From contig CAZDCO010000001.1 in NCBI GenBank assembly GCA_964504025.1, forward strand, positions 1,397 to 65,396: 64,000 bases of DNA. The letters run 5' to 3'. Positions 7,396 to 37,263 of the stretch are shown in pieces. The number at the start of each line of letters is the position of its first letter. The first letter of the stretch is position 1. The notes under the pieces were generated by a model. It worked only from the letters and a program-made list of their open reading frames with translations, made no database searches and was not told the origin of the DNA. The stretch is from an uncultured Clostridia bacterium (GTDB taxonomy: Bacteria > Bacillota > Clostridia > Christensenellales > Borkfalkiaceae). The position numbers and the translations under genes were made by a program.

Positions 7396-7454
7396 AAAGT
7401 GCAGCACAATACGCGCCGCCTTTTTCATATTATAAAGCAAAGGAGCTTTATCGT

Positions 7455-9115
7455 ATGGACACTTATCTTATAAACGGCGGTGAAAGATTATACGGAAAAT
7501 TGCAAATACAAAGCGCAAAAAACGCCGTTTTGCCTTTGCTTGCCGCTTCCGTCTTGACCGACGAGCAGGTAAAAATCAGAGGTGTACCGCCCATCTCCGA
7601 CGTGGAAAATATGCTGCGTATTTTAACGGAAGTGGGTGCGAAAGTGAAACGTAATGGCGAATATACCGTCATTGACAGCTCGAACGCTATTTCTCACGAG
7701 ATCCCTGCGCGACTCACCAAAGAGTTGCGTTCTTCGGTTTTTATGCTCGGTAGCGTCTTGACGCGCTTTCGCCGCGCGCGCATTTCCTATCCGGGCGGTT
7801 GCGACATAGGTTTGCGCCCGATCGACTTGCATTTGTCGGGCTTGAAACGGCTTGGCGTGGATATTATCGAAGAGGGCGGTTTCATCGAATGTCGCGCCGA
7901 TACCTTAAAGGGCGCGGAAATATTGTTGGACTTTCCGAGCGTAGGCGCGACGGAGAATATCATTTTGGCGGCGGTGAAAGCGGAGGTGTACCGCCCATCT
8001 CCGACGTGGAAAATATGCTGCGTATTTTAACGGAAGTGGGTGCGAAAGTGAAACGTAATGGCGAATATACCGTCATTGACAGCTCGAACGCTATTTCTCA
8101 CGAGATCCCTGCGCGACTCACCAAAGAGTTGCGTTCTTCGGTTTTTATGCTCGGTAGCGTCTTGACGCGCTTTCGCCGCGCGCGCATTTCCTATCCGGGC
8201 GGTTGCGACATAGGTTTGCGCCCGATCGACTTGCATTTGTCGGGCTTGAAACGGCTTGGCGTGGATATTATCGAAGAGGGCGGTTTCATCGAATGTCGCG
8301 CCGATACCTTAAAGGGCGCGGAAATATTGTTGGACTTTCCGAGCGTAGGCGCGACGGAGAATATCATTTTGGCGGCGGTGAAAGCGGAGGGTATGACGGT
8401 GATCCGCAACGCGGCGAAAGAACCGGAAATCGTCGATTTGCAAAATTTCCTCAACGCGATGGGCGCGAAAGTGGGCGGCGGCGGTGGCGGCACGGTATTC
8501 GTCGAGGGCGTAAAACGGCTGTACGGCGTCGAGTATACGCCGATCAAAGACCGTATCGAGGCTGGTACGCACTTGATCGCGGCGGCAATGTGCGGCGGCG
8601 AAATCGAAGTCGAGGGCGTGCAAGCGGAAAATATTGCGGCTCTTTTACATAAATTGCGTGAAAACGGTTGCAAAATACATACGAAAAATGATAGAATAGT
8701 ATTGCGTAGCGACGGAAGGCTACGCGCGGTAGATTTGGTGGAAACGATGCCCTTCCCGGGCTTTCCTACCGATTTACAGGCGCAATATTCCACGCTGTGT
8801 TCCGTCGCGCTCGGCACTACGCTCGTGGTGGAGAATTTGTTTGAAACGCGATACAAATTCGCGGCGGAGTTAAAACGCATGGGTGCGGATATCACCGTGC
8901 GCGACCGTACCGCCGTCGTACGCGGCGTAGAACGGTTGCACGGCGCGAAAGTGTTGGCGAGCGATTTGCGCGGCGGCGCGGCACTCGTACTGGCAGGCTT
9001 GGCGGCGGAGGGCGATACGACGGTTTTGGACGTGGCGCATATCGATAGAGGGTACGCCGATTTCGAGTATAAGCTGAAAAAACTCGGCGCGAAAATTCGT
9101 CGAGTACGCGTATAA
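7455..9115 (+). pseudogene. murA: UDP-N-acetylglucosamine 1-carboxyvinyltransferase, interrupted by a 404-bp tandem duplication (frameshift)
   Basis: The N-part (frame of ORF 7011..8030, ATG 7455) stops at 8030. The C-part continues in the frame of ORF 7799..9115. Removing one 404-bp copy restores a single 1257-nt frame with the active-site PGGCDIGLRPIDLH. Confidence 0.9.
7581..8388. repeat. Perfect direct tandem duplication, 2 x 404 bp (7581-7984 and 7985-8388) inside murA
   Basis: The sequence reads identically at an offset of 404 nt. Identical antisense ORFs occur at 7623..7832 and 8027..8236. The peptide GVPPISDVENML...AAVKAE occurs twice. Confidence 0.95.
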
Positions 9116-9154
9116 AAAGAGTAAGAAGAGTAAAAACTACCAAAGAGGGAACGT

Positions 9155-9958
9155 ATGAAAACGAAAAGGATAGCAACCGTCTTGTTGACGCTCGTCGTGT
9201 TTTTATCGGCAGTCGTGTTGGGTATAACCACCGTCTACCGCGTAGACGACGTGCGTGTGGATATCGTCGCGTTGTCGAACGAGGGGCGCACGGAAGCGGA
9301 AAACGTGCAGGCGCGCTTGAAAAAAGCGTACTATAAACAGGGTATATTTTCCACCGATCGAACGAAAGCGGACGAAGTGCTTTCGGAGTTTCCCTATTTG
9401 CGTTTGGTTTCCTTTTCGCGCGCGTATCCAAACCTGCTCGTGGTAGAGCTTGCCGAGGACGAAGAGGTATACGCCGTACCCACGGACGAAACGAACGCCT
9501 CGTTCTATATCTTGAACGACGAGGGCATCGTGCTCGGTACGCGGAACGATTACGTCAATCGCGTGGATAGCGACGTGCAGGCGAAAAACGTCTTGTTGAC
9601 GGCGGAGCGTATCGGCAGACCGCTGACGGGGGAAGATTGCAAGTCGGTGTTCTTTCCGTTTTGTCAAAGCTTGAACGAAATGTTAGACGATAAGATCCGC
9701 GCGAACGTTACCGCGATACGGTTCGTCGCGCCGACTTCGCAACCCGAGCAGGCGTATTATTGCATACAAACGACGGAGGGAGTGCGGCTGTATTTGTTCG
9801 GGGCGACGGAAAACGCGGTGGAAAAGGCGCGTAAGGCGTTAGAAAAATACGCTTCGTTGTCCGATACGCAAAAGATGACGGGACGCGTCGCCGTTCGCGA
9901 GGACGCGCAAGGTTTGTACGCGGACTATTCGGAACACGACGATTTTTCAAGAGAATAA
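9155..9958 (+). CDS. ftsQ: Cell division protein FtsQ/DivIB-like (single TM plus POTRA-like domain)
   Basis: N-terminal TM segment IATVLLTLVVFLSAVVLGI, a POTRA-like segment YRVDDVRVDIV...NLLVVELAEDE, and a position between the mur genes and ftsA. Confidence 0.65.
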   Translation: MKTKRIATVLLTLVVFLSAVVLGITTVYRVDDVRVDIVALSNEGRTEAENVQARLKKAYYKQGIFSTDRTKADEVLSEFPYLRLVSFSRAYPNLLVVELAEDEEVYAVPTDETNASFYILNDEGIVLGTRNDYVNRVDSDVQAKNVLLTAERIGRPLTGEDCKSVFFPFCQSLNEMLDDKIRANVTAIRFVAPTSQPEQAYYCIQTTEGVRLYLFGATENAVEKARKALEKYASLSDTQKMTGRVAVREDAQGLYADYSEHDDFSRE

Positions 9959-23167: not shown

Positions 23168-23196
23168 TTGACTTTTCTTTTTTCATAATGTATAAT
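23168..23196 (+). promoter_or_regulatory. Consensus sigma-A promoter of the fibre locus
   Basis: TTGACT (23168-23173), a 17-nt spacer, then TATAAT (23191-23196). Confidence 0.75.
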
Positions 23197-23207
23197 ACCG
23201 ATAGATA

Positions 23208-23290
23208 CACGAGAATAGCAAAATAGTCGTAAGGCTATCACGCAAAGCTATAGGGGCTTGTGTTTATACGTAAGTCAGCCAGTTGCCGAA
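23208..23290 (+). promoter_or_regulatory. c-di-GMP-I (GEMM-I)-like riboswitch aptamer #1
   Basis: AGCAAAAUAGUC-GUAA-GGCUAUCACGCAAAGCUAUAGGGGC...AAGUCAGCCAGUUGCC. It has the GCAAA element, a GNRA-capped hairpin, the ACGCAAAGC junction and a 3' AGCCnGUUGCC as remembered for GEMM-I. It lies just downstream of the promoter. Confidence 0.8.
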
Positions 23291-23322
23291 TGAATCCCAC
23301 GAGGGTTACGTTCGGCTTTTTT
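23285..23322 (+). terminator. Expression-platform terminator of riboswitch #1
   Basis: GCCGAA...TTCGGC followed by TTTTTT. Its 5' arm overlaps the 3' end of the aptamer, and it ends about 20 nt before ATG 23342. Confidence 0.7.
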
Positions 23323-23341
23323 GTTGCCAAAAGGAAACGCT

Positions 23342-24151
23342 ATGCAAGAAATTACGAGAAAAAAACTGAAAATCGTATCGTCGTTGATTATGTGCGTATT
23401 AAGCCTTTTCTCCGTCGTTTCTCTCTCCCTTGCATGGTTCGCCGTCAATGGCTCCACGCGCGGCGACGGCATGGACGTCGTCGTTCGTAACGAAACGTGC
23501 GTTCTCGGTACGACCTACTATAAAATTACGAAAACGACCGACGGCAAGTACGCCTTGGGTACGGCGCAAACGGAGCTTTCCTTGGGCAAATATAACGCCT
23601 TGGATAACGATTATTCGGTGTTGCTTAAAATCTATCTTGACGCGTCGGCGTTGGAAAAAACGGTACACCTTGCCGCGGAAACGACCACGTCCTATTTCTT
23701 GGGCGACGGCGAACATCCGCTGTTGCCGCCCTCGGCGAGCGATAATACGCACCCCGATACGACGGGAAAGGGGTACACCAACGCTTTGTCGAGTATCGTA
23801 GCTTTTGCCGTGTTGACGCCGCAGGAAGTTGCCGCCGTAAAGGGGAGTACCCTCGCGCAAATTCCCACGCAAAACCGCTTGACTTCGTTGATCGATCAAA
23901 CCACGCAAAAACCGCAAAATAGCGTCAACGTGTCGCAAGACGGCGCAACGTCGCTGTCGTTGAGCGACGATAACTATAACGGACAGGCGTGTAAGGCGAT
24001 ATACGTCGTGATCACCTACGACGATTTGCTCGTTACCACCGTCTTTTCCGCCAATATCGGCAACGACGTAATGTCCACGACGGACGACGGCGGCGAGTCC
24101 GTTCCCATTCCCTTCGAACGCGATTTCACCTTGTTCGTAGACGTGCAGTAA
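23342..24151 (+). CDS. Secreted protein with a SipW/TasA-type 'AWF' signal peptide (TasA/camelysin-like candidate), 269 aa
   Basis: N-terminus KKLKIVSSLIMCVLSLFSVVSLSLAWFAVNGSTRGDGMDVVV. The same AWF...GM(D/N)V pattern occurs in the 28713 gene, and SipW peptidases are encoded in the same operon. Confidence 0.6.
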   Translation: MQEITRKKLKIVSSLIMCVLSLFSVVSLSLAWFAVNGSTRGDGMDVVVRNETCVLGTTYYKITKTTDGKYALGTAQTELSLGKYNALDNDYSVLLKIYLDASALEKTVHLAAETTTSYFLGDGEHPLLPPSASDNTHPDTTGKGYTNALSSIVAFAVLTPQEVAAVKGSTLAQIPTQNRLTSLIDQTTQKPQNSVNVSQDGATSLSLSDDNYNGQACKAIYVVITYDDLLVTTVFSANIGNDVMSTTDDGGESVPIPFERDFTLFVDVQ

Positions 24152-24218: not shown

Positions 24219-26735
24219 ATGAAAAAACTAACGACGGCTTTCGTAACGTTTTTAGCCGCTTTGCTCGCATTCACCGCGACCACGCTCGCGTGGTTTTCTA
24301 TGCGCGCACAAGTCCCTTTTCCTACCAACTTTTACGGCTCGACGCAAGCAGCCTACTTTGCAGGCGGCAACGGCAGCAAAGACGAGCCGTATACGATCAG
24401 CGCCCCCGTCCACCTCTACAATTTGGCTTGGTTGCAATACCTTGGCTATTTCAACCTCAAAGACGGCTTCAATAACGGTAGGGCGCAAAGCTTCTTCAAG
24501 CTGGAAAATTCCTTCTCGTGCAACGCCCTCGTCCTGCCTCCGATCGGCACGGCGGAATATCCCTTTATCGGCAACTTCGACGGCAACGGCAAAGTTCTCA
24601 CCAACGTTACCGTCTCCAACTATAAAAACGGCGATAACGGCTTTTCTCGTTATCCCGATAAGGCGCAGTTCAACGCCACGACGAACCTCTTGCTTTCCTC
24701 CAACTCCTCCAACGATAGCGAAGTGTCGATCGTCGGCTTGTTCGGCGTTACGGGCAATTATAACGACTTCGTAACGCAAAAATATGCCTCCGTAACGAAA
24801 AAAGATAGCGAAGAAACGCCTGCCCAAAATACGGCAATGGTAACGGAAACGGAGTTCGCTTACGGCAATATGCAGGTAAAAGACTTCTACGTGAATAACC
24901 TCCACGTGAACAGTCAGTCTGAAAAAACGCTGGTCGGGTTGGTTGCAGGCTACGTTCGCGGCAGCGTGAATAACGTCGGCGTGTACGCGTGCGATATGCA
25001 GCTGAAAAAAGGCGCACAGGGCTTGGAAGAGAATTCTTCCACCGTGTCCCATTACGCCATCGTAGGCAATTACGACGATAGCAAGGTAGAGTGGGAAGAA
25101 AAGCCGATCGGAGGCGTACAGGGCGATAGCGCGGCTTGGGGCGGCTCTATCGATATGCGTACGCTGAATAGAAGAATTACGTATATGTTTGCGGCGGCGG
25201 GAAAAGTAAATGCTACACGCTTGGAAATATCGGATGACAATTTTGGTCTTTCCGCTTCTCGTGTATCGGCTAGTGAGTATTATTGGAATAGAACAGACAC
25301 TTCGTCTTATGCGTTTATATATATCAATGACGGCACTGTGTTGCCACTTAACGTGGATAAATCCAAAATGGGTTTAGATAAAATGGTTTTAGATGAAAGC
25401 GATGAAGTGTTGATAAATAAAGAAGAAATAAAAGGTCTTCACTGCAATACATATTATCAAACATATACGCAAGAGGTAATCAGCTCGACGAATACGGGGT
25501 ATATCGTGGGTTATGGAAAGGATGCGAAATCAAGCATAAGAGCACGTATACAGCCCTTGGCTTCTTCTAACGACGGTGGTATTTATCGTTCGTTAGGATA
25601 TTCGGAGGCGCAAAAAGGATATTCGGAGGCGCAAAAAGACAAGTCTATTCAGTACAACGATGACCATAAAGAGAAATTCGAAATGTTGACCATTGCGTTT
25701 AATGCAGACGGAACGTCGTATAATACTTATCGCATCAAGGACGACGTAAACGGTTCCAAAGATACTACGGCGTTTGATAGCGTAACACAAAAGGGATACG
25801 CAGATTTAGGACTGAACGGATATCAAAGCGTGCGTACAAATTTCGACGCGTCCATGGAAAATTCGTACATGATACACGGCTTTCACTTTCAAAAAGCTTT
25901 ATCGGCTCAAACTGCAACTTCCTATGAAACGGTAAATAAAAACGTGACGTTGTGCGGCGAAGAAAAAACGAACTACTCGTTGATAAAAGGCGGCGTAAAC
26001 TTTACGCTGGAACAAGGCGGTACAATTAAGGCGATTTTAGGTTCGTATTATACGGGCGATGCGAATTCAATGTTCGATCTTTATCGAGTAGAAAGACAGG
26101 AGAACGCAACGGGCGGATATTCGATCAAAAGTTTTCAACGTCTCAGTAAAATATATAAAGACGCTGACGGTAAGCTTAGTTACATATATGAGAACGATAG
26201 CAGCACAACGGATACGGACGGTTTAACCTTGGTGTTTGATTTTGACGCCTTGACAAAGGAAGCCGTTTTAATGAAGAACGCCGCGTACTATTTTGAGATT
26301 CCCGTAACGGCAGGCGATTACGTTATGGGTGCGGATAAGGAATCTTCCGAGTCCAACGCCTACCTTATGTATTTGGATATCGGCGCGAACGGCGGTAACG
26401 ACGGTAGCGACGGCGGTTCGACGGGCGCAACGAAACCGTACGATATCGCTTCGGTCGATTTCGTCAGCGCGCAAGCGGATGCCCACTTCGCCGTACCGCA
26501 AAAGGACGGCGCGACGTACTTTCCGCAATACGCAGACGTAACGTTCTCCGTGTCGTCGGTTACGGAAAAAGCGGTGGTGAAATATCGCCGCGCCGAGTAC
26601 GCGGCGGACGATCTTGCCAACGCCCAAACGACGCCCATTGCGTCCGTGTTGAAATACTATTGCGAAAACGTAACGCTTACGCCTGCGTACGGAAGCGGCG
26701 GCAAGGCGGAAGAGGACGAAAGCTTGAAAAATTAG
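24219..26735 (+). CDS. Large secreted protein (838 aa) with an 'AWF' SipW-type signal and a GLUG/beta-helix-like adhesin module
   Basis: N-terminus LLAFTATTLAWFSMRAQV. The motif EPYTISAPVHLYNLAWL...PPIGTAEYPFIGNFDGNGKVLTNVTVSN matches the common surface-protein module (PIG..F.G.FDGNG..I.NL). An AAGGAGG RBS is present. Confidence 0.6.
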   Translation: MKKLTTAFVTFLAALLAFTATTLAWFSMRAQVPFPTNFYGSTQAAYFAGGNGSKDEPYTISAPVHLYNLAWLQYLGYFNLKDGFNNGRAQSFFKLENSFSCNALVLPPIGTAEYPFIGNFDGNGKVLTNVTVSNYKNGDNGFSRYPDKAQFNATTNLLLSSNSSNDSEVSIVGLFGVTGNYNDFVTQKYASVTKKDSEETPAQNTAMVTETEFAYGNMQVKDFYVNNLHVNSQSEKTLVGLVAGYVRGSVNNVGVYACDMQLKKGAQGLEENSSTVSHYAIVGNYDDSKVEWEEKPIGGVQGDSAAWGGSIDMRTLNRRITYMFAAAGKVNATRLEISDDNFGLSASRVSASEYYWNRTDTSSYAFIYINDGTVLPLNVDKSKMGLDKMVLDESDEVLINKEEIKGLHCNTYYQTYTQEVISSTNTGYIVGYGKDAKSSIRARIQPLASSNDGGIYRSLGYSEAQKGYSEAQKDKSIQYNDDHKEKFEMLTIAFNADGTSYNTYRIKDDVNGSKDTTAFDSVTQKGYADLGLNGYQSVRTNFDASMENSYMIHGFHFQKALSAQTATSYETVNKNVTLCGEEKTNYSLIKGGVNFTLEQGGTIKAILGSYYTGDANSMFDLYRVERQENATGGYSIKSFQRLSKIYKDADGKLSYIYENDSSTTDTDGLTLVFDFDALTKEAVLMKNAAYYFEIPVTAGDYVMGADKESSESNAYLMYLDIGANGGNDGSDGGSTGATKPYDIASVDFVSAQADAHFAVPQKDGATYFPQYADVTFSVSSVTEKAVVKYRRAEYAADDLANAQTTPIASVLKYYCENVTLTPAYGSGGKAEEDESLKN
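25596..25637 (+). repeat. In-frame 21-bp tandem repeat x2 (GYSEAQK GYSEAQK)
   Basis: GGATATTCGGAGGCGCAAAAA occurs twice in tandem inside the 838-aa gene. Confidence 0.9.
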
Positions 26736-26766: not shown

Positions 26767-26795
26767 TTGACGGTCGTAAACAAAAATGCTAAAAT
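26767..26795 (+). promoter_or_regulatory. Internal sigma-A promoter
   Basis: TTGACG (26767-26772), a 17-nt spacer ending in TGC, then TAAAAT (26790-26795). Confidence 0.7.
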
Positions 26796-26809: not shown

Positions 26810-26886
26810 AATATTTTTTGGCAAAACCGTCGCGAGGCGGTGACGCAAAGCCATAGGACTTTTAACAGTTAGCTAGGTTGCAATTA
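26810..26886 (+). promoter_or_regulatory. c-di-GMP-I (GEMM-I)-like riboswitch aptamer #2
   Basis: GGCAAAACCGUC-GCGA-GGCGGUGACGCAAAGCCAUAGGAC...AGCUAGGUUGC. It has the same architecture as #1, with a GNRA-capped hairpin and the ACGCAAAGC core. Confidence 0.75.
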
Positions 26887-26951: not shown

Positions 26952-27761
26952 GTGACGACAGGCGATTTTCAAAAACTGAATACGTACGTGCAATACACCG
27001 TGCACAGCGGCGTGCAACCGATCGAATTGCTTTTTCAGCCCGTGCTCGATTGCTATTCGGCTGCTCCCGTGGCGTATCGCGTCGTCGTTCGGGTGAATAG
27101 TCTCACGACGGGCGTTTTGAATCCCGACGACTATTTATCCGCTTCGGTAGACGAGGAAACGCTACACGCTTTCACCGATCGCGCGATCCGAAAAACGGCG
27201 GCGGCGCAACTTGCGTTGCAAACTTCAAACGTACGCTTTTCGCACCTGTTCGTGCGCTGTCCGTCCTCATTCGTGTACGCGGCGGACTTGTATACGCGCT
27301 TAAAACTCGCGCTCGGTAGCGGCGGAGTGCGTGAAAGCAAACTGAGTTTAGAATTTGACGGTTCGGTTATGGACGCGGATAAGCCCACGTTACAACGCGC
27401 GTTCGCCGATATTCGCGCGGCAGGCTGCACGGTTGCCGTGAACGGCTACGGCGGTTTGCACTTCTCCATGGAAAAATTGCTCGCGGTTTGTCCCGATCAA
27501 CTCTTCTTGGACGAGAGTATCGCCGCTTTGACGACGGATAAAGAAAAACGGGCGGCGGTTGCTCCGCTGATCAACTTCGCCAAGAGTTTGGGCGGCGAGC
27601 TGATTGCTTGCGGCGTTGCCGACGACGAACACTTGCGAGAGTTCCGCTCGCGCGACTGTATCGGTTTTTTACCCGACGGAAGTTATCACGGCGCGTTGAC
27701 GGTGGACGACGGTTTGCATACGCTCGTTGCACTTTGCAAGGAGGGAACGGAAAATGTTTAA
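26952..27761 (+). CDS. Stand-alone EAL-like domain protein with degenerate catalytic motifs (GTG start)
   Basis: It shows EAL-fold spacing (FQPV..., LSLEFDGS, VAVNGYGG, LFLDESI, ACGVADDEHL, IGFL), but the EAL, N, DDFGTG, K, EGVE and QGY positions are all substituted. Confidence 0.6.
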   Translation: MTTGDFQKLNTYVQYTVHSGVQPIELLFQPVLDCYSAAPVAYRVVVRVNSLTTGVLNPDDYLSASVDEETLHAFTDRAIRKTAAAQLALQTSNVRFSHLFVRCPSSFVYAADLYTRLKLALGSGGVRESKLSLEFDGSVMDADKPTLQRAFADIRAAGCTVAVNGYGGLHFSMEKLLAVCPDQLFLDESIAALTTDKEKRAAVAPLINFAKSLGGELIACGVADDEHLREFRSRDCIGFLPDGSYHGALTVDDGLHTLVALCKEGTENV

Positions 27762-28524
27762 CGAAAAACGACCGCTCACTTCGATCAAAAAGAACGCGCA
27801 AGCCACGAAACGCACTCGTCGTTACGTAAAAATACTTTCGCCCGTCATCGGGCTGGTGCTGGCGGTGCTGATCATTGCCTACGTAGCGTCCTTGCTCTTT
27901 TCGCAATACGGCAGCTTTACAATTACGGTAAAAGACTACGCCGATCGTAGCTACGCGCTTACTCTTTCCGAAAGCTCGTCCTTCCAAACGAGTACGTCGA
28001 AATTGACGGCGGAAGAAGTGAAAAATATCAACAACATAACCTACACGTCTTTACCGAACGACTTGAACGACGTAGACGGACCGCATAGCGGAAATGATTA
28101 TCTCGCTTATACCTTCTACGTGAAAAACGTCGGGGAAAAGACTTGCGATTATACCTATCGTTTGGCGATTACGCGCGCAACGGTGGGGATAGACGCGGCT
28201 GTTCGCGTCCGAATCTACTTCACGCCCGATTTTTACAAAGCGGATACGCAAACGTATAACCGCGGCGGCGAGTATATCGACTACGCAAAGCCCAAAACGG
28301 GCGGCAACGGCGAGGCGGAAGTCGATCCGGGCAACCGAGTGATGACCAACTTCTTCAATGCGGAAGTCGTGGCGCAACGAACGGTGAAAGACTTTGCCGT
28401 CGGCGACGTGGCGAAATTTACCGTGGTGATTTGGTTAGAGGGCGAAGACCCCGATTGCACGGACGACGTGCTTGGCGGCGTATTCAAAACGGACATGGAT
28501 ATCGCGATTGAAAGCGAATCATAA
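27754..28524 (+). CDS. Membrane-anchored extracellular protein (256 aa), possible fibre accessory or anchor
   Basis: A GGAGGGAA RBS precedes the ATG, which overlaps the upstream stop by 8 nt. The protein has a basic N-terminus, one TM helix (ILSPVIGLVLAVLIIAYVASLLF) and a beta-rich ectodomain ending FTVVIWLEGEDPDCTDDVLGG. Confidence 0.5.
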   Translation: MFNEKRPLTSIKKNAQATKRTRRYVKILSPVIGLVLAVLIIAYVASLLFSQYGSFTITVKDYADRSYALTLSESSSFQTSTSKLTAEEVKNINNITYTSLPNDLNDVDGPHSGNDYLAYTFYVKNVGEKTCDYTYRLAITRATVGIDAAVRVRIYFTPDFYKADTQTYNRGGEYIDYAKPKTGGNGEAEVDPGNRVMTNFFNAEVVAQRTVKDFAVGDVAKFTVVIWLEGEDPDCTDDVLGGVFKTDMDIAIESES

Positions 28525-28712: not shown

Positions 28713-29444
28713 ATGAAAAAGTTTAAGAAAATTATTCCTGCACTTTGCATGCTTCTCGTAAGCGCAGTCTTGCTTGGTACGTCCACCTTCGCGTGGTTCT
28801 CTATCAACAACCAAGTTACCGCCGGCGGAATGAACGTATCTGCTACCAGCAACACGCAATTCTTGGTGATTAGCAGCAGCAACACCCTTGGAACGGATAC
28901 GAATTTGGCAACCGTAACGAAAACCAGCGGCGGCGTTGACGGGAACAAGGTATATCCCTGCGCACAAGCAACGGAAGCGAATAAACCTGCAACGGGCTTG
29001 GCTGTCGGCGATTGGTATACGGCACAAAGTAAAGATTTTGACGACGCGGCGGATTTGACGGGTGGCACGAACGAAAACGCAGTAAACGTTAAGAAAATTG
29101 AAACGAGTGATTTGACCAACTATCACTTAACATATACCTTCTACGTTGGTTTGGCGAGCGGTTCTTCCGCCGTTACGAGTGATTTGCAATTCGTAGGTGC
29201 GTGCGACGGTTTTGAAAAAGGCATTACCGCGTTTATCTCAATCGATGGTACGTCGAAAACCATGAGCAGCACTACGGCTGTTACGTTTGAAGGCGTTGCG
29301 TTGTCTACTACGGCAACGACTGTAACGGTTGTATTGTATATCAACGGTAACAACGCGAACGTAAAGAGTTCCTCTGCGTTGGCTGGGATTGCAGGGACGC
29401 TCGGTTTGACGATTACCGCAACCGACATCGACGTTAGCGCATAA
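28713..29444 (+). CDS. Small secreted 'AWF'-signal protein (243 aa), candidate major fibre subunit (TasA/camelysin-like)
   Basis: An AGGAG RBS is present. The N-terminus is MKKFKKIIPALCMLLVSAVLLGTSTFAWFSINNQVTAGGMNVSATS. The mature part is Thr/Ser/Ala/Gly-rich, and a stable hairpin lies directly downstream. Confidence 0.6.
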   Translation: MKKFKKIIPALCMLLVSAVLLGTSTFAWFSINNQVTAGGMNVSATSNTQFLVISSSNTLGTDTNLATVTKTSGGVDGNKVYPCAQATEANKPATGLAVGDWYTAQSKDFDDAADLTGGTNENAVNVKKIETSDLTNYHLTYTFYVGLASGSSAVTSDLQFVGACDGFEKGITAFISIDGTSKTMSSTTAVTFEGVALSTTATTVTVVLYINGNNANVKSSSALAGIAGTLGLTITATDIDVSA

Positions 29445-29560: not shown

Positions 29561-30337
29561 ATGGAAACGACAACGAAAAATAAAATTAAGAAGATAACGG
29601 GGATCGTCGTCAACGTCTTGTTGTGGCTTTTCGTGGCTTTTTCCGTTGTGATCACGATCATAGCGGTTTCTGCAAGCGCGAACAAGAAAAACGTACCGAC
29701 GCTTGGCGGACGTTGCTATTTAAGCGTACAGTCCGATTCGATGAACGCATCGAAACCCGAGTGGGTATCCGCCGATAAACCGAGCGGATTCAAAACGGGC
29801 GATTTGCTGATCGGCAAATATATTTCCGACGATCAAGCGGCAATCGCCGCGTTGGAAATCGGCGACGTCATCACGTTCGAATACGATATGAACCACGACG
29901 GCGTATATTCGCAAGGCGAGTATAACACTCACCGTATCGTGGAGATCATAACGAAGGAAGACGGCAGCGTAAACTTTTACAAAACGCAGGGCGATAACGA
30001 AGCGTTCAGCCACGGAGCTACGGAAGAGGTATATGCGTCGCGTATCATTGCCGTATATACGGGCGACAAAATCGGGGGGATCGGCGGCGTCATTACGGCG
30101 TTGAGTACGCCTCTCGGATTCGGGTTGTGTATCGTGTTGCCGTTGGGCTTGTTCTTCGGCTACGAATTGTTCGTGTTCATTAGAACGGTTATGCAGGTAA
30201 AGAACGAGGGTAAGAAAATGATCACTGCCGCCGACGAAGAGTTGATCAAACAACGCGCGGTGGAAGAATATTTACGTATGCAACGGGAAGCGCAAGAGAG
30301 CGCGAAAGCGGAGCAAACGAACGAAGAAGAAATATAA
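29561..30337 (+). CDS. sipW: SipW-type (ER/archaeal-type) signal peptidase I, paralog 1
   Basis: N-terminal TM helix, Ser box QSDSMNAS, His box THRIVEI, QGDNE box, and a C-terminal TM helix plus charged tail. Confidence 0.8.
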   Translation: METTTKNKIKKITGIVVNVLLWLFVAFSVVITIIAVSASANKKNVPTLGGRCYLSVQSDSMNASKPEWVSADKPSGFKTGDLLIGKYISDDQAAIAALEIGDVITFEYDMNHDGVYSQGEYNTHRIVEIITKEDGSVNFYKTQGDNEAFSHGATEEVYASRIIAVYTGDKIGGIGGVITALSTPLGFGLCIVLPLGLFFGYELFVFIRTVMQVKNEGKKMITAADEELIKQRAVEEYLRMQREAQESAKAEQTNEEEI

Positions 30338-30371: not shown

Positions 30372-31931
30372 ATGTACGGTTTTCTGACGTGGTTCAAAGC
30401 GTTTTTTGAAAATATGTTAAACGGAATATTAGAAATCTTTTCAGGGCTATTCTTCGGGATCGTCCACATTTTCGATTTTCCTTACTATTTCAAGTTGTGG
30501 GCGACCGAAGGTTCGACCTTTAACGCGTTCGACTGGATCTTATCCGTTTTATCCTTCTTGCTCGTGTTCGCCGTTTGGTTCGCCGTATTTTTCCTGATCG
30601 TGCTCGCCGTGCGTAAATTCGTGCGGTATCGTAAAACGGTAACGCGCAACGAAGACTTGTTGGAAGAAATCGCCGATTTGCATAACGAAGTCGGACGGCT
30701 TGCCAACGAAAAGGAAAAGATTATACAGTTAAAGGTAACGCAAGCAGGGCTTTCGTACGAGCAATTCAAAAAAATGTTCGAGGCGCAGTTGCAAGAAGCG
30801 GCGCAAACCGTCGCCGCACCGCAGAGCGAACCGCAAACGCTCGCGCCGATCGACGGACGATTCCAACGCTTGTCCGCCGTCGACGAAAAGTACGCCTACT
30901 ACGAACCGCCCGTATACGACAAAATTGAGTCGTTGCAAGCGTTGTGCGAAGAACTCCGCAACTACGCGTGCAGTCAAAACGGGTTATATTACGAGTTGCG
31001 CACCATTCGTTTGATGATCGCAGGGCTTGCGGCGACGAAATTGATCGTCCTGCAAGGTATATCGGGTACAGGTAAAACGTCGTTGCCGTACGTTATGGGT
31101 AAATTTTTCCAAAACGACGCCACGATCGCTTCCGTGCAACCATCTTGGCGCGACCGTAACGAATTGTTCGGCTACTTTAACGAATTTACGAAGAAATTTA
31201 ACGAAACCGAAGTGCTGAAACGCATTTACGAATCGGGCTACAACGACGATTTGAACGTCATCGTTTTGGACGAAATGAACATCGCGCGCGTCGAATACTA
31301 CTTCGCGGAAATGCTGTCCATTTTGGAAATGCCGAACTCGGAAGAATGGAAGATCGAGCTCGTGCCATCCACGATGGAAAACGATCCGACGCGTTTGGAG
31401 GGCGGCAATTTGAAAATTCCGCAAAACGTATGGTACGTCGGTACGATCAACAACGACGACTCTACCTTCTCCGTGTCCGATAAGGTGTACGATAGAGCGT
31501 TCGTTATCAATTTGGACAACAAGGGTATTCCCTTCTCCGCGCCGAAAACGGAAGCGAAGCGCATTGCCTATTCCGAAGTGGAAGGGCTGTACTGCAAAGC
31601 GATGGAAGAATATCCCGTCAGTCAAACGATTTTGGACGATATTGAAAAGTTGGACGGCTATGTCATCGAGAAATTTAGGATCGCGTTCGGTAACCGTATC
31701 ATGAAACAGCTCAAAAGCTTCGTGCCTGTGTACGTGGCTTGCGGCGGTACGGAAAAAGAGGGTGTCGATTATATGTTGGCGACGAAAGTCTTCCGCAAAT
31801 TCGAGAGTTTGAATCTCTCCTTGATCCGCGACGAAATTCGTCCGTTGATCACCTATTTAGATTCCCTGTTCGGCAAAGGGGAAATGAAAGAGTGTATTGC
31901 CTATTTGCAGTTGTTGCAAAAAATGTATTAA
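30372..31931 (+). CDS. Membrane-anchored McrB-family AAA+ NTPase (519 aa)
   Basis: Two N-terminal hydrophobic helices, a coiled-coil stretch, Walker A LQGISGTGKTSL, Walker B VIVLDEMNIARVEYYFAEMLSILE, and GTINNDDS...YDRAFVI, as in McrB/AAA_5 proteins. Confidence 0.75.
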   Translation: MYGFLTWFKAFFENMLNGILEIFSGLFFGIVHIFDFPYYFKLWATEGSTFNAFDWILSVLSFLLVFAVWFAVFFLIVLAVRKFVRYRKTVTRNEDLLEEIADLHNEVGRLANEKEKIIQLKVTQAGLSYEQFKKMFEAQLQEAAQTVAAPQSEPQTLAPIDGRFQRLSAVDEKYAYYEPPVYDKIESLQALCEELRNYACSQNGLYYELRTIRLMIAGLAATKLIVLQGISGTGKTSLPYVMGKFFQNDATIASVQPSWRDRNELFGYFNEFTKKFNETEVLKRIYESGYNDDLNVIVLDEMNIARVEYYFAEMLSILEMPNSEEWKIELVPSTMENDPTRLEGGNLKIPQNVWYVGTINNDDSTFSVSDKVYDRAFVINLDNKGIPFSAPKTEAKRIAYSEVEGLYCKAMEEYPVSQTILDDIEKLDGYVIEKFRIAFGNRIMKQLKSFVPVYVACGGTEKEGVDYMLATKVFRKFESLNLSLIRDEIRPLITYLDSLFGKGEMKECIAYLQLLQKMY

Positions 31932-31952
31932 CGGAGCGTTAGAGAAAGCGGT

Positions 31953-34385
31953 ATGGAAAACGAAAGAGTAAACGACGTATTTTCCGCGACGGAGCAATCG
32001 GAATCCGCCGCTTTTCTCGGTTGGACGCAAAAATTGAAATTCGATCGTTCGTTCACGGCGAAACTCAGCCTTGCGGACGATAAAGTGAAGGGCTTTTATA
32101 CCGAAATCGCGTCCGCCTTGCTCGCCTACGATCGCGTGAGATCGCGCACGGGCTGGTCGGGCGTATCCTTTTCCGTAGGGCGCGAACGGGTGGCGTTTAT
32201 CGCCGTAACGGGTAAAACGCTGTGCGTATACCTCGCGCCGTTCACAGAAGAATTGCCCTCATCGCGGTATAAGGCAAAGGACGTGTCTTCCGTCAAAGCG
32301 CGCGCCAAAACGCCCCTTTTATGGAAGATTAAAAGCGACGGCGCGAAGAATTACGTACTCAAACGCATAGAAGACTACGCAAAGAGCGCAGGTTGGACAA
32401 AGCGCGAAGTCGGGCAGGAAGAAATGCCGTTTGCCGCGCCGAAAAGCGATTCCTTCCAAAACTTGATCACGCGCGGACTGATCCGAATCGTAAGAAACGG
32501 CGTAATCGATCGCGCGAAAAGGAGTGCGCTTCCGCGTGCGGAAACGAACGGCGCGTACGCCGATACGGTGGATACGCTGCAATCGCTTTTGGAACGGCAC
32601 GGCGCGTACGACGAAATTTTGTCGTTGTTCTCGGACGGCGAGGGCAAGGCGAGCCTTTCTCAAAAACAAATTCTCCGTTGCGTAGACGAAATTTGGGTGA
32701 ACGCCGTGGAAGATTGTCTTTCGGCGTTGGACGAACTCATTCGTAACCCCAACCATTTCATTGCGGAATCGGAGGACGTGTTGCCGATTGAAAAGACGAA
32801 GAGGATCAGCGGTAGATCGATCGCGCATTTGTGCCGCCATACCGACTACGTAAGCGTAGACAGAAACGGGGATATTACGCCGACGAAAATGCTGAACGTC
32901 TTTCGGGAAGATTCGTTGTTGACGTACGAAAACAAGTTCTTGAACACGCTCGTTTACCGCCTGTACGCGTTCGTGGATAAGCGGTATAAAATCGCGCGCG
33001 AATACGGCGCGGACGAAACGTTGAGCGAATTTGTGTTCGAGAACTCTTTTACGCACGGCGACGGTAAGGGCAAAGTGAAGATCAGCGTCGAATATTCCGA
33101 ACGGAATTTGAACGCGGACGTGAAGAACGGCTTGCTCGGTACGGGGCTTTGGAAGAGAGTGGAACGCTTGCACGATATCGTCGGCAGCTATATGCAATCT
33201 TCTTTCGTTAAAGCTATGGAAAAGAACTTCGTGCATCCGCCGATTTTGCGTACGAACGCCATTTTGAAGAATAAATATTTCAGAGAATGTCTCGCCTTGT
33301 GGGAATTTATCGAACGTTACGACGACGCCGGGTACGGAATCACCGTCGAGGAAAAATCGCAAGAGATTTCCGACGAATACGTCCGAACGGCGTACGCGGG
33401 CGCGGCTATGCAGTACCTGTTGTTCCGTAAGGCGTTGGACGACGACTTCGAGGACGAGGACGAACCGTCGTATATCCGTCCGGAATTTACCGTATTGGAA
33501 AGGCAGCGCGAAGAATTTGAGGAGAAATTCTTCGACGAACCGTTCGAGGGGGAGATCGAGGACGACGTTACGTTTGCGTTGCGCGTCGCGCTTGCGGCGG
33601 ACGAGCAAACGCCGTCCGATACGACGGGAGTTACGTTCATGCAACGTACCTTCCACGCAAGGTTGCGCACGGCGAACGAGGGTACGAAAGCGTCCTTCGT
33701 CGAGCTTGCCAACGCGTTGTTGCGCTACGAGCGCGTAAAAATGCGGCAGAGTAAAAAATACGCGTCGTTTTCCGTCGGTCGGCGCACGATCGCAAAGATT
33801 ACCGTCAGCGAAAAGACGGTTAAACTGTATTTGGCGTTGAACGAAACGCCGAACATATATCACGCGTATAGCGTGGCGGATAAAAAAACGTTCGAGGATA
33901 CCCCCGTATGCTTGCGCGTGCGCGGCTCGCGCAGTTTGGGGTACGCAAAACGGCTGATTGCCGAACTTGCCGAGGAACTTTCCTTGCAAACGGCGGAGAA
34001 CGCACCGCAAACGACGGTAGCTGACTATCCGACGGAAAGTTTAGCGGAAATGTTGCAAAAGGGCTGGGTAAGCTTTTCCCGTCGCTCGTCTTTTCCGTCC
34101 GCAAAAGCGTTTGGAAAGGAAAAGAACGCGCGGATGGATACGTACGCGGAGGAAACGCGCCGCAACGCCGTACAACCGACGAAACCGCAACCGTTGCCTA
34201 CAACGAAGAAAAACGAAGAATACGAACCATCCGAAAACGCACGCGCCGTGGCACGCGACATCGGCGATTTGATTCGTCCTACGGGCAATTACGAACGCCC
34301 GACCGAATACGGCGTGGACGACGCGTCGGGCTTTATGTCGGACGAACGGGAGCGCGCGAACGCTGACGACGGAGAGAACGTATGA
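31953..34385 (+). CDS. 810-aa partner protein: two copies of a terminal domain flanking a McrC/DUF2357-like core; no nuclease motif recognised
   Basis: The TYENKFLNTLVYRL motif resembles the T-x-EN-x-F motif of McrC/DUF2357. There is an internal repeat (residues about 32-150 versus about 565-680). The stop overlaps the next start (ATGA). Confidence 0.5.
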   Translation: MENERVNDVFSATEQSESAAFLGWTQKLKFDRSFTAKLSLADDKVKGFYTEIASALLAYDRVRSRTGWSGVSFSVGRERVAFIAVTGKTLCVYLAPFTEELPSSRYKAKDVSSVKARAKTPLLWKIKSDGAKNYVLKRIEDYAKSAGWTKREVGQEEMPFAAPKSDSFQNLITRGLIRIVRNGVIDRAKRSALPRAETNGAYADTVDTLQSLLERHGAYDEILSLFSDGEGKASLSQKQILRCVDEIWVNAVEDCLSALDELIRNPNHFIAESEDVLPIEKTKRISGRSIAHLCRHTDYVSVDRNGDITPTKMLNVFREDSLLTYENKFLNTLVYRLYAFVDKRYKIAREYGADETLSEFVFENSFTHGDGKGKVKISVEYSERNLNADVKNGLLGTGLWKRVERLHDIVGSYMQSSFVKAMEKNFVHPPILRTNAILKNKYFRECLALWEFIERYDDAGYGITVEEKSQEISDEYVRTAYAGAAMQYLLFRKALDDDFEDEDEPSYIRPEFTVLERQREEFEEKFFDEPFEGEIEDDVTFALRVALAADEQTPSDTTGVTFMQRTFHARLRTANEGTKASFVELANALLRYERVKMRQSKKYASFSVGRRTIAKITVSEKTVKLYLALNETPNIYHAYSVADKKTFEDTPVCLRVRGSRSLGYAKRLIAELAEELSLQTAENAPQTTVADYPTESLAEMLQKGWVSFSRRSSFPSAKAFGKEKNARMDTYAEETRRNAVQPTKPQPLPTTKKNEEYEPSENARAVARDIGDLIRPTGNYERPTEYGVDDASGFMSDERERANADDGENV

Positions 34386-35014
34386 GCGTCGGTGCGAAGA
34401 TAAAAAAAATCGTCGGTACGGCACTCTTCGTGCTCGTCGTGCTGTTCGTGCTTTTCGCCGCCGTAGTAGGTACGATCAATCGCGCGAGAAATAAGCCTAC
34501 GTTTTTGTTCGGACACGCGCTGTTGTGGGTAGAAACGGGGAGTATGGAACCGTCCATTCCGTCGCGAAGTTACGTGTTGGTGCGCGAATATTCGGGTGAA
34601 AATTTGGAAACGGGCACGGTGATTACCTTCACCTGTACCGATCCCTCTTCCGCCGTGTACGGCGAAACGATCACGCACCGTATCGTCGAAGTAACGACGG
34701 AGGGATACAGGACGAAAGGGGATAACGGAAACCCCGATACGTGGACGGTAAAATCACAAGACGTGGTAGCCGTGTACGTAACGAACCTTTCCGTATTGAC
34801 CGCGATCGGGCGAATTTTCGCTTCTCCGATCGGCTTGTTGTTGATCGTGGGCGTGTTCTTGGCTTCGTGCGTATTTTTATATATTCCCGATATCGTCAAG
34901 GCGTTTCAAAGTACCGCGGACGACCGCACGGATAAAGAAAAAGAGTTGGAAATAGAAAGAAGAGTACGCGAAGAAGTGCGTAAACTGCAAGAAGATAGGA
35001 GGCAGGGAAAATAG
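34382..35014 (+). CDS. sipW: SipW-type signal peptidase I, paralog 2
   Basis: TGSMEPSIP Ser box, THRIVEV His box, KGDNGNPD box, and a C-terminal TM helix plus charged tail. Its ATG overlaps the TGA of the upstream gene. Confidence 0.85.
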   Translation: MSVGAKIKKIVGTALFVLVVLFVLFAAVVGTINRARNKPTFLFGHALLWVETGSMEPSIPSRSYVLVREYSGENLETGTVITFTCTDPSSAVYGETITHRIVEVTTEGYRTKGDNGNPDTWTVKSQDVVAVYVTNLSVLTAIGRIFASPIGLLLIVGVFLASCVFLYIPDIVKAFQSTADDRTDKEKELEIERRVREEVRKLQEDRRQGK

Positions 35015-37263
35015 TGCGAAATTTTTTAGCAAAATATAAAAACGTATTGTTGCTCTCCGTATTAGCCGTCGTTTGTACGAGCTTTTTCCTGTATGTCTTG
35101 TTGCTGTTGGGCGATTATAACGCGGGCGTAAACGAACAAGCGCGTTCCCGTGCGGAGTTTTACGCGGCCGAACAAACGCACTACGTTCAAGGGCAGGGCG
35201 ACGATCTCTCGCGCGCAACGGAGTACGCCGCCGATAAACTTGCTTCTTGCACGTCGCCAGCGGAGTTGATCGAGGAGTTGCAACGCTCGGAAGTTGCGCT
35301 CCGCGGAGACGATTTTCTCGGCGCGTTCTACGCCAAAGACGACGTCTTGTACGACGAGGACGGCGCGGTCGCGTGGAATTATACCGCGATCAAAGACGAT
35401 TTGCAAACGGAAAGCACGACGCTTTCGCGCATATTCTATTATAAAAATCAAGATCCGTCTTTCGCCGTCGTAGCTAAGACGGACTCGCCTCTTGTCGACG
35501 CTTTCGTAACGGTGTATAAGCGCAGCGCGCTCTCCCTCTCCGCCGCTTTGGACGAGGAACGCGGTTCAGAATTCGTTTTGCTTTGCCGCCACGACGGTAA
35601 AATCGTAGAAAAACTCGTGCACGGCGATACGTTCACGATCGATAATGAGCCGATTCAAAACGGATTGTTGAAAACGCTGTTCAACGACAATTCCGATTGG
35701 CAACGGGTGTGCGCCGCGTTCTCGGAAGCGGAAACGCAGTCGTTTATCTTCCAAAAAGGCTCGTCGCAATACGTCTTGACGGTTACTCCGTTCGGCACGT
35801 CCTACGGGGAAACGTCCTTGGTATGCGCGTATAAGGTGAGTGCGATCTACGGCGAGGGCTTTACCGTCATGCAAAGTATCTACGCCGCGTTGCTCAGCTT
35901 GACGATCGTGATCGTCGTTGCCGCAGGTGCGCTGTTGGTTACGAAATTAGCGGAAAAGCGTAAAATATTCCGTTTGGAAATGGAAGTACCCTTCTTGCAG
36001 TGCGCTACCGTCAAAAAATTCGAGAACGAAGCGGACGAGTTGTTGAAACGCCACCCTCGTTCTTCGTTCGCGCTCGTTTCTTTGCAAATCGGCAACTACG
36101 GCTACGTCGTCGATTGCTTCGGGGAAGAGTCAGCAAAGCAGCTTTCTAAATACGTCGCCGATACGTTGCGCCGCACGCTCTATTTGGAAGAAACGTTCGG
36201 CTACGCGCAGGACGGGGAGTTCGTACTCCTTTTGCATTACCGTGAGCGGCAAGGCTTGGCGGAGCGTTTGAACGGCACGTATATGCGTTTGTCCTCGTTC
36301 AACTGCTTTGGCGACGGTGCGTATAAAGTAGGCGCGTCGTTCGCCGTGTACGAAGTGGAACGCGAGGAAAAGCAAACGGTCAAGCAAATGCTCGATAAGC
36401 TGTATATCGCGAAAGAATCCGCCACGTCGCAAAACGCGTCGGTATCGATCGGATATTACGACGACGTTATGCGTAAACGGTATATGAAAAAGGCGGAAAT
36501 CGAAGGCAAAATGGAACAAGCGTTGAAAAACAGCGAATTCCACCTCTTTTACCAGCCGAAGTATAACCTCAAAGCGAAAAATTTGGACGGTTGCGAAATT
36601 CTCGTCCGTTGGTACGACGCCGCTTTGGAAAAATATCATCTCCCCGCCGAGTTTTTACCCGTCTTCGAGGAGAACGGCTTTATCGTCAAGCTCGACCACT
36701 TCGTCTTCTATAAAGCCTGCGAAAATATCGCCAAACGCATCGAAAACAGACAAATTTGTTATCCCATTTCCGTCAACGTTTCCCGTATCACGGCAATTCA
36801 ATCGGATTTCACCGATTATTACGTGCGTATCAAAAAGAAATTCGATATCAAAGACAATTTCATCACGCTGGAATTTACCGAAAGCTTCGCGTATGAAAAT
36901 TACGAATTTTTGCGGAATATCGTCGATACGATGCACGCGAACGGCTTGCTTTGTTCGATCGACGACTTCGGCACGGGCTATTCGTCGTATAATATCCTGA
37001 AAACGATCGCCATGGACGAAATCAAACTCGACAAGTTCTTCCTCGGCAAGGGCTTGACTGCCGAACGCGATCAAACGCTGCTGGAAAGCGTGATCGGCAT
37101 GGTAAAAAAACTGGGCATGAAGGTTACGCAAGAGGGCGTGGAAACGGAAGAGGACTTGTTCCGTCTGGACGCACTCGGTTGCGACGTCATTCAAGGCTAC
37201 TATTTTGCAAAGCCTATGAAATATTCCGACTACTGCACGTTCGTCGATAAAAACTTTACTTGA
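35014..37263 (+). CDS. Membrane sensor protein with a degenerate GGDEF and an intact EAL domain (c-di-GMP phosphodiesterase), GTG start
   Basis: Two TM helices flank an approximately 250-aa extracytoplasmic region. The GGDEF position reads QDGEF. The EAL motifs are EILVRW, SVNVS, LEFTES, DDFGTGYSS, IKLDK, QEGVETEED and IQGYYF. Confidence 0.85.
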   Translation: MRNFLAKYKNVLLLSVLAVVCTSFFLYVLLLLGDYNAGVNEQARSRAEFYAAEQTHYVQGQGDDLSRATEYAADKLASCTSPAELIEELQRSEVALRGDDFLGAFYAKDDVLYDEDGAVAWNYTAIKDDLQTESTTLSRIFYYKNQDPSFAVVAKTDSPLVDAFVTVYKRSALSLSAALDEERGSEFVLLCRHDGKIVEKLVHGDTFTIDNEPIQNGLLKTLFNDNSDWQRVCAAFSEAETQSFIFQKGSSQYVLTVTPFGTSYGETSLVCAYKVSAIYGEGFTVMQSIYAALLSLTIVIVVAAGALLVTKLAEKRKIFRLEMEVPFLQCATVKKFENEADELLKRHPRSSFALVSLQIGNYGYVVDCFGEESAKQLSKYVADTLRRTLYLEETFGYAQDGEFVLLLHYRERQGLAERLNGTYMRLSSFNCFGDGAYKVGASFAVYEVEREEKQTVKQMLDKLYIAKESATSQNASVSIGYYDDVMRKRYMKKAEIEGKMEQALKNSEFHLFYQPKYNLKAKNLDGCEILVRWYDAALEKYHLPAEFLPVFEENGFIVKLDHFVFYKACENIAKRIENRQICYPISVNVSRITAIQSDFTDYYVRIKKKFDIKDNFITLEFTESFAYENYEFLRNIVDTMHANGLLCSIDDFGTGYSSYNILKTIAMDEIKLDKFFLGKGLTAERDQTLLESVIGMVKKLGMKVTQEGVETEEDLFRLDALGCDVIQGYYFAKPMKYSDYCTFVDKNFT

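Follow-up and report, generated by a model that had tools for sequence, protein, structure and literature searches.

The window analysed here is a stretch of 64,000 nucleotides (nt) from an uncultured Clostridia bacterium of the Borkfalkiaceae (GenBank assembly GCA_964504025.1, contig CAZDCO010000001.1, positions 1,397 to 65,396 of the forward strand), and its subject is a pair of adjacent genes encoding a membrane-anchored GTPase related to McrB and a larger partner related to McrC. It is well supported that this pair is a nuclease-free derivative of McrBC, and equally so that it is a fixed component of an envelope operon of gut Clostridia centred on signal peptidases of the SipW type, an operon that in the clade of the window is controlled by a cyclic di-GMP (c-di-GMP) riboswitch. 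NCBI records label these proteins as hypothetical. The class to which the pair belongs has already been named, as CoCoPALM, and is uncharacterised, and the architecture of the partner and the regulation of the operon are specific to the clade of the window. We favour, with moderate confidence, the interpretation that the pair, a McrBC derivative of the CoCoPALM type, serves a SipW-dependent system for surface proteins or fibres as a nucleoside triphosphate (NTP)-driven accessory machine and does not act as a restriction enzyme. The pair is a clear case of the recruitment of a restriction-enzyme motor to the cell envelope, in a system whose hosts number several hundred species or more among the Firmicutes of gut and rumen.

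An earlier note on this stretch had described two open reading frames (ORFs), of 519 and 810 amino acids (aa), and had taken the first for a membrane-tethered nucleoside triphosphatase (NTPase) of the McrB family. Both ORFs, which lie on the plus strand, and this assignment stand. That the 519-aa protein is a membrane-anchored, McrB-like AAA+ GTPase of the NxD clade is well supported. McrB was the sole family that it matched in a phmmer search against the PDB (E 4.4e-6, residues 202-378), a profile of 102 relatives aligned with E. coli McrB in hhalign at 97.1% probability (E 5e-11), and the NCBIfam McrB model PRK11331 matched at 2.6e-6, far under its equivalog cut-off. The motifs named in the earlier note are all present: in the alignment of 102 relatives G229, G232, G234 and K235 of the Walker A motif GISGTGKTS, D300 and N303 of the Walker B motif VLDEMN, and T358, N360, D362, S364 and T365 of GTINNDDST are invariant, as are R375 and R442, and E301 is conserved in at least 90%. 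With its nucleotide-binding and hydrolysis residues all conserved, the GTPase is, on good support, predicted to be catalytically intact. The family signature GT[AI]NxD[DE]ST has the short form NxD with D or E next to it, a combination by which a main branch is defined in the McrB tree (PMC11090510).

Anchoring in the membrane is provided by a strong hydrophobic segment at residues ~54-80 (scan window 49-86). Of the two N-terminal hydrophobic helices originally proposed this one is secure, and the first, at residues 16-34, is weak and borderline in the hydrophobicity scan; many relatives have two clear membrane segments. In the AlphaFold2 model, which has a predicted local distance difference test score (pLDDT) of 92.4, helix 52-124 is single and unbroken, so that the membrane helix runs into a stalk of ~45 residues. 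The GTPase domain would face the cytoplasm, since an R/K-rich stretch follows residue 80 (positive-inside rule). The N-terminus matches GspM (5.3e-5) and FtsL (0.016) weakly, which is the sole support for homology to FtsB. Relatives of the GTPase are numerous among cluster representatives (8482 at E<=1e-3, 757 at E<=1e-30) and have three architectures, with one or two transmembrane segments (~500 aa), with at least three (~560-700 aa), or soluble (~700-870 aa).

The McrC-like identity of the 810-aa partner is indicated by a match to Pfam DUF2357 (PF09823; 24.7 bits against a gathering threshold of 23.3) over residues 253-346, within which lies TYENKF, the T-x-EN-x-F box that the earlier note had recognised. 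The same domain was matched in all 38 partner homologues scanned with Pfam, at best with an E of 6.9e-8. In the AlphaFold2 model of the partner (pLDDT 76 overall, above 90 in the domains) the core is a bundle of helices that includes a long beta-hairpin (residues 355-384), and this bundle with a stalk agrees with the published description of DUF2357 (PMC11090510). Comparison of a profile of 111 partner homologues with E. coli McrC by hhalign was not significant, and the McrC assignment therefore rests on the Pfam domain and gene context. The core is flanked, as had been proposed, by two copies of one domain: the stretches 28-150 and 560-690 align at 35% identity (E 1e-18) and are thus mutually homologous, and these alpha+beta domains resemble YjbR and YdhG/DUF1801 structures in a Foldseek search against the PDB. 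DUF5655 was matched in two partner homologues, and the N-terminal copy in the window matches the C-terminus of PADLOC PDC-S18 (6.7e-9). YjbR-like domains are limited to the clade of the window; most partners are without them, and many, at ~370 aa, consist of the core alone.

Absence of a nuclease from the partner, also proposed at the outset, is borne out by every approach taken. The AlphaFold2 model contains no PD-(D/E)xK fold; Foldseek of the full-length model against the PDB returned neither a nuclease nor McrC; the profile of 111 homologues found nothing significant, and no nuclease, among PDB sequences; no nuclease Pfam family was detected in the 38 homologues; and no D...(D/E)xK pattern exists among the residues conserved at 90% or more in 66 partner cores from different species, which include W248, E253, Y325-E326-N327, R402, P430, T434-N435, K439 and W450. 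Partners of ~370 aa, moreover, leave no room for a nuclease domain. Foldseek matches of the partner to TolC and kinesin were rejected as noise, with TM-scores below 0.16.

Two further stretches of the partner are conspicuous. The most conserved, at residues ~270-320 (window 32760-32910), reads HFIAETEEVLPIELTKKI...TPTKMLNVFREDS and is modelled at a pLDDT of only ~45-63; conservation together with low model confidence is the pattern expected of a segment that stays unfolded until it binds, for instance within the ring of the GTPase. The tail at residues ~780-810 (window 34290-34385) carries a conserved RPxxDYxxPTxYGxDDSSGF in an otherwise disordered region, with Y780, P783, G787, D789, D790 and F794 at 90% or more in the 111 homologues, and resembles a short motif for the docking of a further component.

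A scan of one genome per species gave at least 595 confirmed GTPase loci, and the 80 closest of these, all with GTPases of the type with one or two transmembrane segments, were scored for synteny by running hidden Markov models built in this work on their ORFs, only testable loci being counted. All 80 are from Clostridia and Bacilli, chiefly metagenome-assembled genomes (MAGs) from gut and rumen, and the isolates among them include Ruminococcus flavefaciens MC2020, Ruminococcus sp. FC2018 and Eubacterium ruminantium FB3002. A gene with an McrC core lies 3' of the GTPase gene in 72 of 72 loci, directly adjacent in 71, with a median gap of 39 nt, and a SipW gene on the same strand lies within 7 kb of the GTPase in 51 of 51; SipW is directly 5' of the GTPase in 53 of 66 loci and is found 3' within 6 kb in 49 of 58. 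The family of p265, a further protein of the operon, is found in 60 of 67. From Christensenellales-like to Oscillospirales, Lachnospirales and Bacilli MAGs the order of the genes relative to SipW and the secreted proteins does not vary, and between these groups the GTPases are 50-84% identical. In the window a GAGGA ribosome-binding site precedes the GTPase gene, the gap to the partner gene is 21 nt (not 22, as had been counted), and the stop codon of the partner overlaps the start of the second SipW gene as ATGA, exactly as described. The view that the pair is an integral member of its operon and not an inserted defence cassette, first argued from this spacing, thus holds across the loci in which partner and SipW could be scored.

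The link to SipW is closest in five Ruminococcus loci, one of them from the isolate R. flavefaciens MC2020 (L046), in which an McrC-like core (~residues 15-305) and a complete SipW with both its transmembrane segments (E 1e-72 to 1e-80) are joined in one ORF by a linker of ~450 aa that is rich in E, R and K, highly charged and coiled-coil-like. Such a fusion is topologically sensible and, as a Rosetta stone, predicts a physical complex of partner and SipW. The association extends beyond the family of the window, as GTPases with at least three transmembrane segments (~600 aa, from metagenomes) are also preceded by a SipW-like gene (~335 aa), directly 5' and often overlapping, in 25 of 29 testable loci; one such locus (L105) also encodes surface proteins of the Big_2, BspA-LRR and Flg_new types, besides an ABC ATPase. 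The gene 3' of these GTPases, of ~420-460 aa, matches the McrC core weakly. In two other metagenomic loci (L132:8988-13625 and L134:7857-12325) two different GTPase paralogues of ~435-458 aa each flank the McrC-like gene, an arrangement that suggests mixed rings or two rings per partner.

The class was named in one paragraph by Bell et al. (eLife 2024; PMC11090510), who deferred its analysis to a later paper and described an NxD GTPase fused to an FtsB-like transmembrane and coiled-coil domain, with coiled coils usually, not obligatorily, fused to both homologues. The available supplementary files of that paper hold no details on CoCoPALM, and its available text makes no mention of riboswitch control, fusions, the sister family with multiple transmembrane segments or nuclease loss in this clade (PMC11090510). 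Our literature search turned up neither a later paper on CoCoPALM nor experiments that connect McrB with a signal peptidase. The pair in the window resembles the class in its NxD GTPase, its N-terminal transmembrane segment and coiled coil, its DUF2357 partner and its signal-peptidase neighbours, and differs from it in that the modelled partner is without a long coiled coil and has two YjbR/DUF5655-like domains instead; the Ruminococcus relatives conform to it with a coiled coil on the McrC homologue, which is fused to SipW.

With E. coli McrBC the pair shares an AAA+ protein with Walker A and B motifs and a sensor Asn/Asp signature, the N-terminal activator domain of McrC, and adjacent, co-oriented genes; in contrast to McrBC, the GTPase has a membrane anchor in place of the DNA-binding N-terminal domain and an NxD rather than an NxxD signature, the partner is without a PD-(D/E)xK nuclease, and the context is one of envelope and secretion genes and not of restriction-modification. 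The NxD GTPase core and coiled-coil N-terminal extensions are shared with CoCoNuT and PDC-M26 systems, but those relatives are soluble, with long coiled coils and HEPN or other nucleases. SipW-TasA of Bacillus subtilis, SipW-BsaA of Clostridium perfringens and the archaeal TasA-like operons likewise place a dedicated peptidase of the SipW (archaeal or endoplasmic reticulum) type beside its substrates and are under biofilm-type regulation. Those operons, however, have no NTPase. The operon of the window has two SipW paralogues, and its secreted proteins are without detectable homology to TasA, camelysin (Peptidase_M73) or BsaA. Likeness to type IV pili and type II secretion is one of logic only, consisting of a cytoplasmic hexameric NTPase, a dedicated leader peptidase and N-terminally anchored substrates, together with the weak GspM/FtsL resemblance noted above; no component is homologous, the AAA+ protein being of the McrB and not the PilB/GspE type, and the peptidase of the window being a Ser/His signal peptidase I as opposed to an aspartic prepilin peptidase.

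How an accessory machine of this kind would work can be sketched from its parts. In McrBC, the DUF2357 domain plugs the hexamer and stimulates hydrolysis. By analogy, the GTPase would assemble into a hexamer tethered to the membrane, its pore filled by the McrC-like subunit, and hydrolysis of GTP would move or gate this subunit and thereby the SipW peptidases, to which the partner is joined by fusion in Ruminococcus and would in the window be linked through the charged cytoplasmic SipW tails. Energy or signals from the cytoplasm could in this way be brought to bear on the outer face, where the signal-anchored proteins encoded alongside would be cleaved, released or polymerised, in a loose parallel to the trio of ATPase, platform and prepilin peptidase in type IV pili, and in the clade of the window the c-di-GMP-I riboswitch would tie the machine to the sessile or biofilm state. 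A more ambitious version, which we put forward tentatively and consider a good deal less probable than not, is that GTPase, McrC-like protein and SipW constitute an unrecognised NTP-powered machine for assembly of surface fibres or matrix in Gram-positives, in which stepwise or rotary drive of the SipW-linked McrC-like subunit couples leader cleavage to extraction and polymerisation, an analogue of the type IV pilus motor made from restriction-enzyme parts.

Several points weigh against the role in a surface-protein or fibre system that we favour. Foldseek of the GTPase model ranks MCM, MoxR, NorQ and dynein above McrB, and as McrB is not singled out, the fold alone places the protein only in the wider AAA+ clade (MCM/MoxR/NorQ/dynein/McrB). 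No experimental work on any member was found in the literature. TasA-type fibres of Bacillus and archaea polymerise extracellularly without an NTPase, so that a need for energy is not obvious, and the fibre is itself inferred, since the secreted proteins match no known fibre family. Threading of substrate through the ring is unlikely because McrC fills the central pore in McrBC. YjbR/DUF5655-like domains carry an annotation as DNA-binding and are a typical feature of proteins associated with restriction, and would as such fit a role related to nucleic acids better than one in assembly.

The alternative that fares best, which we nevertheless think unlikely, is that the pair is a regulatory GTPase switch and not a motor. 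The complex would respond to a signal from the cytoplasm, for example the GTP pool, c-di-GMP or a molecule bound by the YjbR-like domains, and would turn SipW, or the recruitment of the EAL or GGDEF-EAL proteins of the operon, on or off allosterically without mechanical work. The c-di-GMP elements that frame the operon (riboswitch, apparently degenerate EAL protein and GGDEF-EAL protein) fit such a role, as do the small alpha+beta domains of the partner, which are of a ligand- or DNA-binding type, and the SipW fusions, which tether the peptidase to the complex. Terra et al. are said to have found in 2012 that the C-terminus of B. subtilis SipW gives it a second, peptidase-independent regulatory role, which also counts in favour of a switch. 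However, the c-di-GMP elements and YjbR-like domains occur only in the clade of the window whereas the core of GTPase, McrC-like protein and SipW is far more widespread, and every catalytic residue of a processive AAA+ hydrolase is strictly conserved. A switch also overlaps with the accessory machine proposed above, from which it differs only in whether work is done.

More doubtful, to our minds, is a role in anti-phage defence or abortive infection, with the pair as a membrane-associated offshoot of McrBC or CoCoNuT systems. Detection of foreign nucleic acid would then fall to the YjbR/DUF5655-like domains, and the GTPase would act by disturbing the membrane or shutting off envelope functions; the SipW genes would serve as effectors or be mere bystanders. 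Such a role would be consistent with the homology of the pair to McrB and McrC, with the DUF5655/YjbR-like fold in the partner, and with the best PADLOC matches, which are to the candidate defence families PDC-M26A and PDC-S18; the sister clades, moreover, are CoCoNuT systems, for which a defensive function has been predicted (PMC11090510). The match of the GTPase to PDC-M26A (E 2.4e-36, 123.6 bits) covers only positions 207-440 of the 724 of the profile, that is, the shared GTPase core, and GTPase relatives of all architectures score about equally, at 120-155 bits; it therefore denotes relatedness and not membership, and membership of PDC-M26 was rejected, none of the PDC-M26 partner models being matched by the partner in the window. 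The pair contains neither a nuclease nor any other recognisable effector, and the YjbR-like domains that would serve as sensors are missing from most partners. Synteny with SipW and secreted proteins is fixed across groups, and the identity of the GTPases between groups is unlike that of fast-evolving defence genes. The flanks are also of a housekeeping character, with no mobile-element or defence genes near the pair in the flanks examined: on one side are a Mur ligase, ftsK, miaB, pgsA, cinA, recA and rny, on the other an AraC regulator and a sugar ABC transporter, and the G+C content of the window is unremarkable. One homologous locus is placed between murB-whiA-pfk and redox genes. An intact nuclease together with pairs in defence islands lacking sipW, the finding that the earlier note had named as decisive for an ordinary restriction system, was encountered in none of 160 loci. 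SipW synteny, the Ruminococcus fusions, the housekeeping neighbours and the lack of a nuclease thus favour, of the two possibilities that note had left standing, the envelope or fibre function over defence.

Least probable of all is a membrane quality-control machine of FtsH-like logic, which would rid the membrane of SipW substrates, very abundant proteins, that have stayed uncleaved, or of the signal peptides that they leave behind. In its favour are an AAA+ protein anchored by its N-terminus with a cytoplasmic ring, neighbours that are peptidases and highly expressed signal-anchored proteins, and a Foldseek neighbourhood whose closest solved AAA+ structures include the chaperone-like remodellers MoxR, NorQ, CbbQ and RavA. 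Against it, the pair is without a protease domain, its pore would by analogy with McrBC be filled by the DUF2357 partner, and the McrC-SipW fusion would have no rationale.

Should SipW-dependent processing indeed be powered or gated by the GTPase, this would be the first known case of an NTPase at work in a SipW/TasA-like pathway, and would provide a handle on adhesion and biofilm formation, including a c-di-GMP-controlled matrix, in commensals such as Ruminococcus and Christensenellales, which are abundant but poorly studied. The McrC-SipW fusions give this proposal a concrete and testable prediction, that of a physical complex.

Features of the McrBC-like operon and of homologous loci. Positions are those of the window, protein residues are numbered separately, and positions after a locus name are those of that locus.
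Feature	Position	Strand	Details
Promoter-like site, upstream unit	23168-23196		directly 5' of the second riboswitch
Second c-di-GMP-I riboswitch, heading upstream unit	23207..23290	+	Rfam, 61.4 bits
Protein with SipW-type signal peptide, upstream unit	23321-24151	+	276 aa; ORF
Protein with SipW-type signal peptide, upstream unit	24219-26735	+	838 aa; ORF
Promoter-like site	26767..26795	+	TTGACG-17 nt-TAAAAT with TG extension; consensus match only; directly 5' of riboswitch
c-di-GMP-I riboswitch aptamer, heading operon	26810..26885	+	Rfam RF01051, 57.1 bits against gathering 35
Stand-alone EAL protein, first operon gene	26952..27761	+	269 aa; Pfam EAL, E 9.8e-28; syntenic in homologous loci
p265, membrane-anchored or secreted protein	27727..28524	+	N-terminal hydrophobic segment (transmembrane 32-62); WLEGxDPDC motif
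Putative secreted SipW substrate	28713..29444	+	243 aa from ATG; signal peptide end ...GTSTFA/WFS; hydrophobic N-terminus
SipW-type signal peptidase I, copy 1	29561..30337	+	258 aa; transmembrane 9-27, 174-196; long charged C-terminal tail
Membrane-anchored McrB-like GTPase, NxD clade	30372..31931	+	519 aa; ORF, motifs, profile matches, AlphaFold2 model
Parts of the GTPase	residues 2-518		helices 2-49; transmembrane and stalk helix 52-124; AAA+ core ~188-381; helical lid 400-518
Nuclease-free McrC-like partner	31953..34385	+	810 aa; Pfam DUF2357, AlphaFold2 model
Parts of the partner	residues ~28-810		YjbR/DUF5655-like ~28-150; DUF2357 core ~200-495; second YjbR/DUF5655-like ~560-690; disordered tail
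SipW-type signal peptidase I, copy 2	34382..35014	+	210 aa; NCBIfam TIGR02228, 62.4 bits against cut-off 51.85
Membrane GGDEF-EAL protein, last operon gene	35014..37263	+	749 aa; EAL 3.6e-52, GGDEF 4.1e-5; transmembrane 8-35, 282-314
McrC-SipW fusions	L030:7353-10307; L033:9828-12824; L040:11787-14765; L046:11709-14681; L049:11595-14564		~990 aa
Multi-transmembrane GTPase loci	L088-L111, L113, L115, L141		e.g. L105:6368-7375 and 7350-9176

The operon of the pair probably starts at the promoter-like site that directly precedes the riboswitch. A c-di-GMP-I riboswitch also heads the homologous operons in L004, L008 and L019, with two copies in the last, and is absent from the head of the operon in the Ruminococcus loci. 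In the stand-alone EAL protein, YRV is found by eye where the Glu-Ala-Leu of the EAL signature is expected, and because of this replacement the protein is possibly an inactive receptor of c-di-GMP. In the GGDEF-EAL protein, whose gene is syntenic in closer relatives, QDGEF replaces GGDEF and the EIL motif is intact by eye, so that the protein probably acts as a phosphodiesterase, its cyclase domain being degenerate.

Both SipW copies match the Bacillus SipW model under its equivalog cut-off, and both sequences show the Ser (SM) and His (THRIV) motifs; copy 1 matches the NCBIfam SipW model at E 1.5e-14, under the curated cut-off, and scores 32.1 with TIGR02228, also under. The 243-aa protein may be a substrate of these peptidases. 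The p265 family has an invariant E-G-x-D-x-x-C inside the WLEGxDPDC motif and often comprises two to four tandem paralogues. The four putative secreted proteins gave no Pfam, NCBIfam or PDB sequence match, and neither did a profile of 34 sequences of the p265 family. A TasA-like identity of the secreted proteins and p265 was accordingly dropped, and we do not call them TasA homologues because every search (Pfam, NCBIfam, phmmer against the PDB and the family profile) failed. In the window two riboswitches, each just 3' of a promoter-like site, head adjacent transcription units for surface proteins, and the upstream unit with its two proteins is syntenic in L001, L002 and L007.

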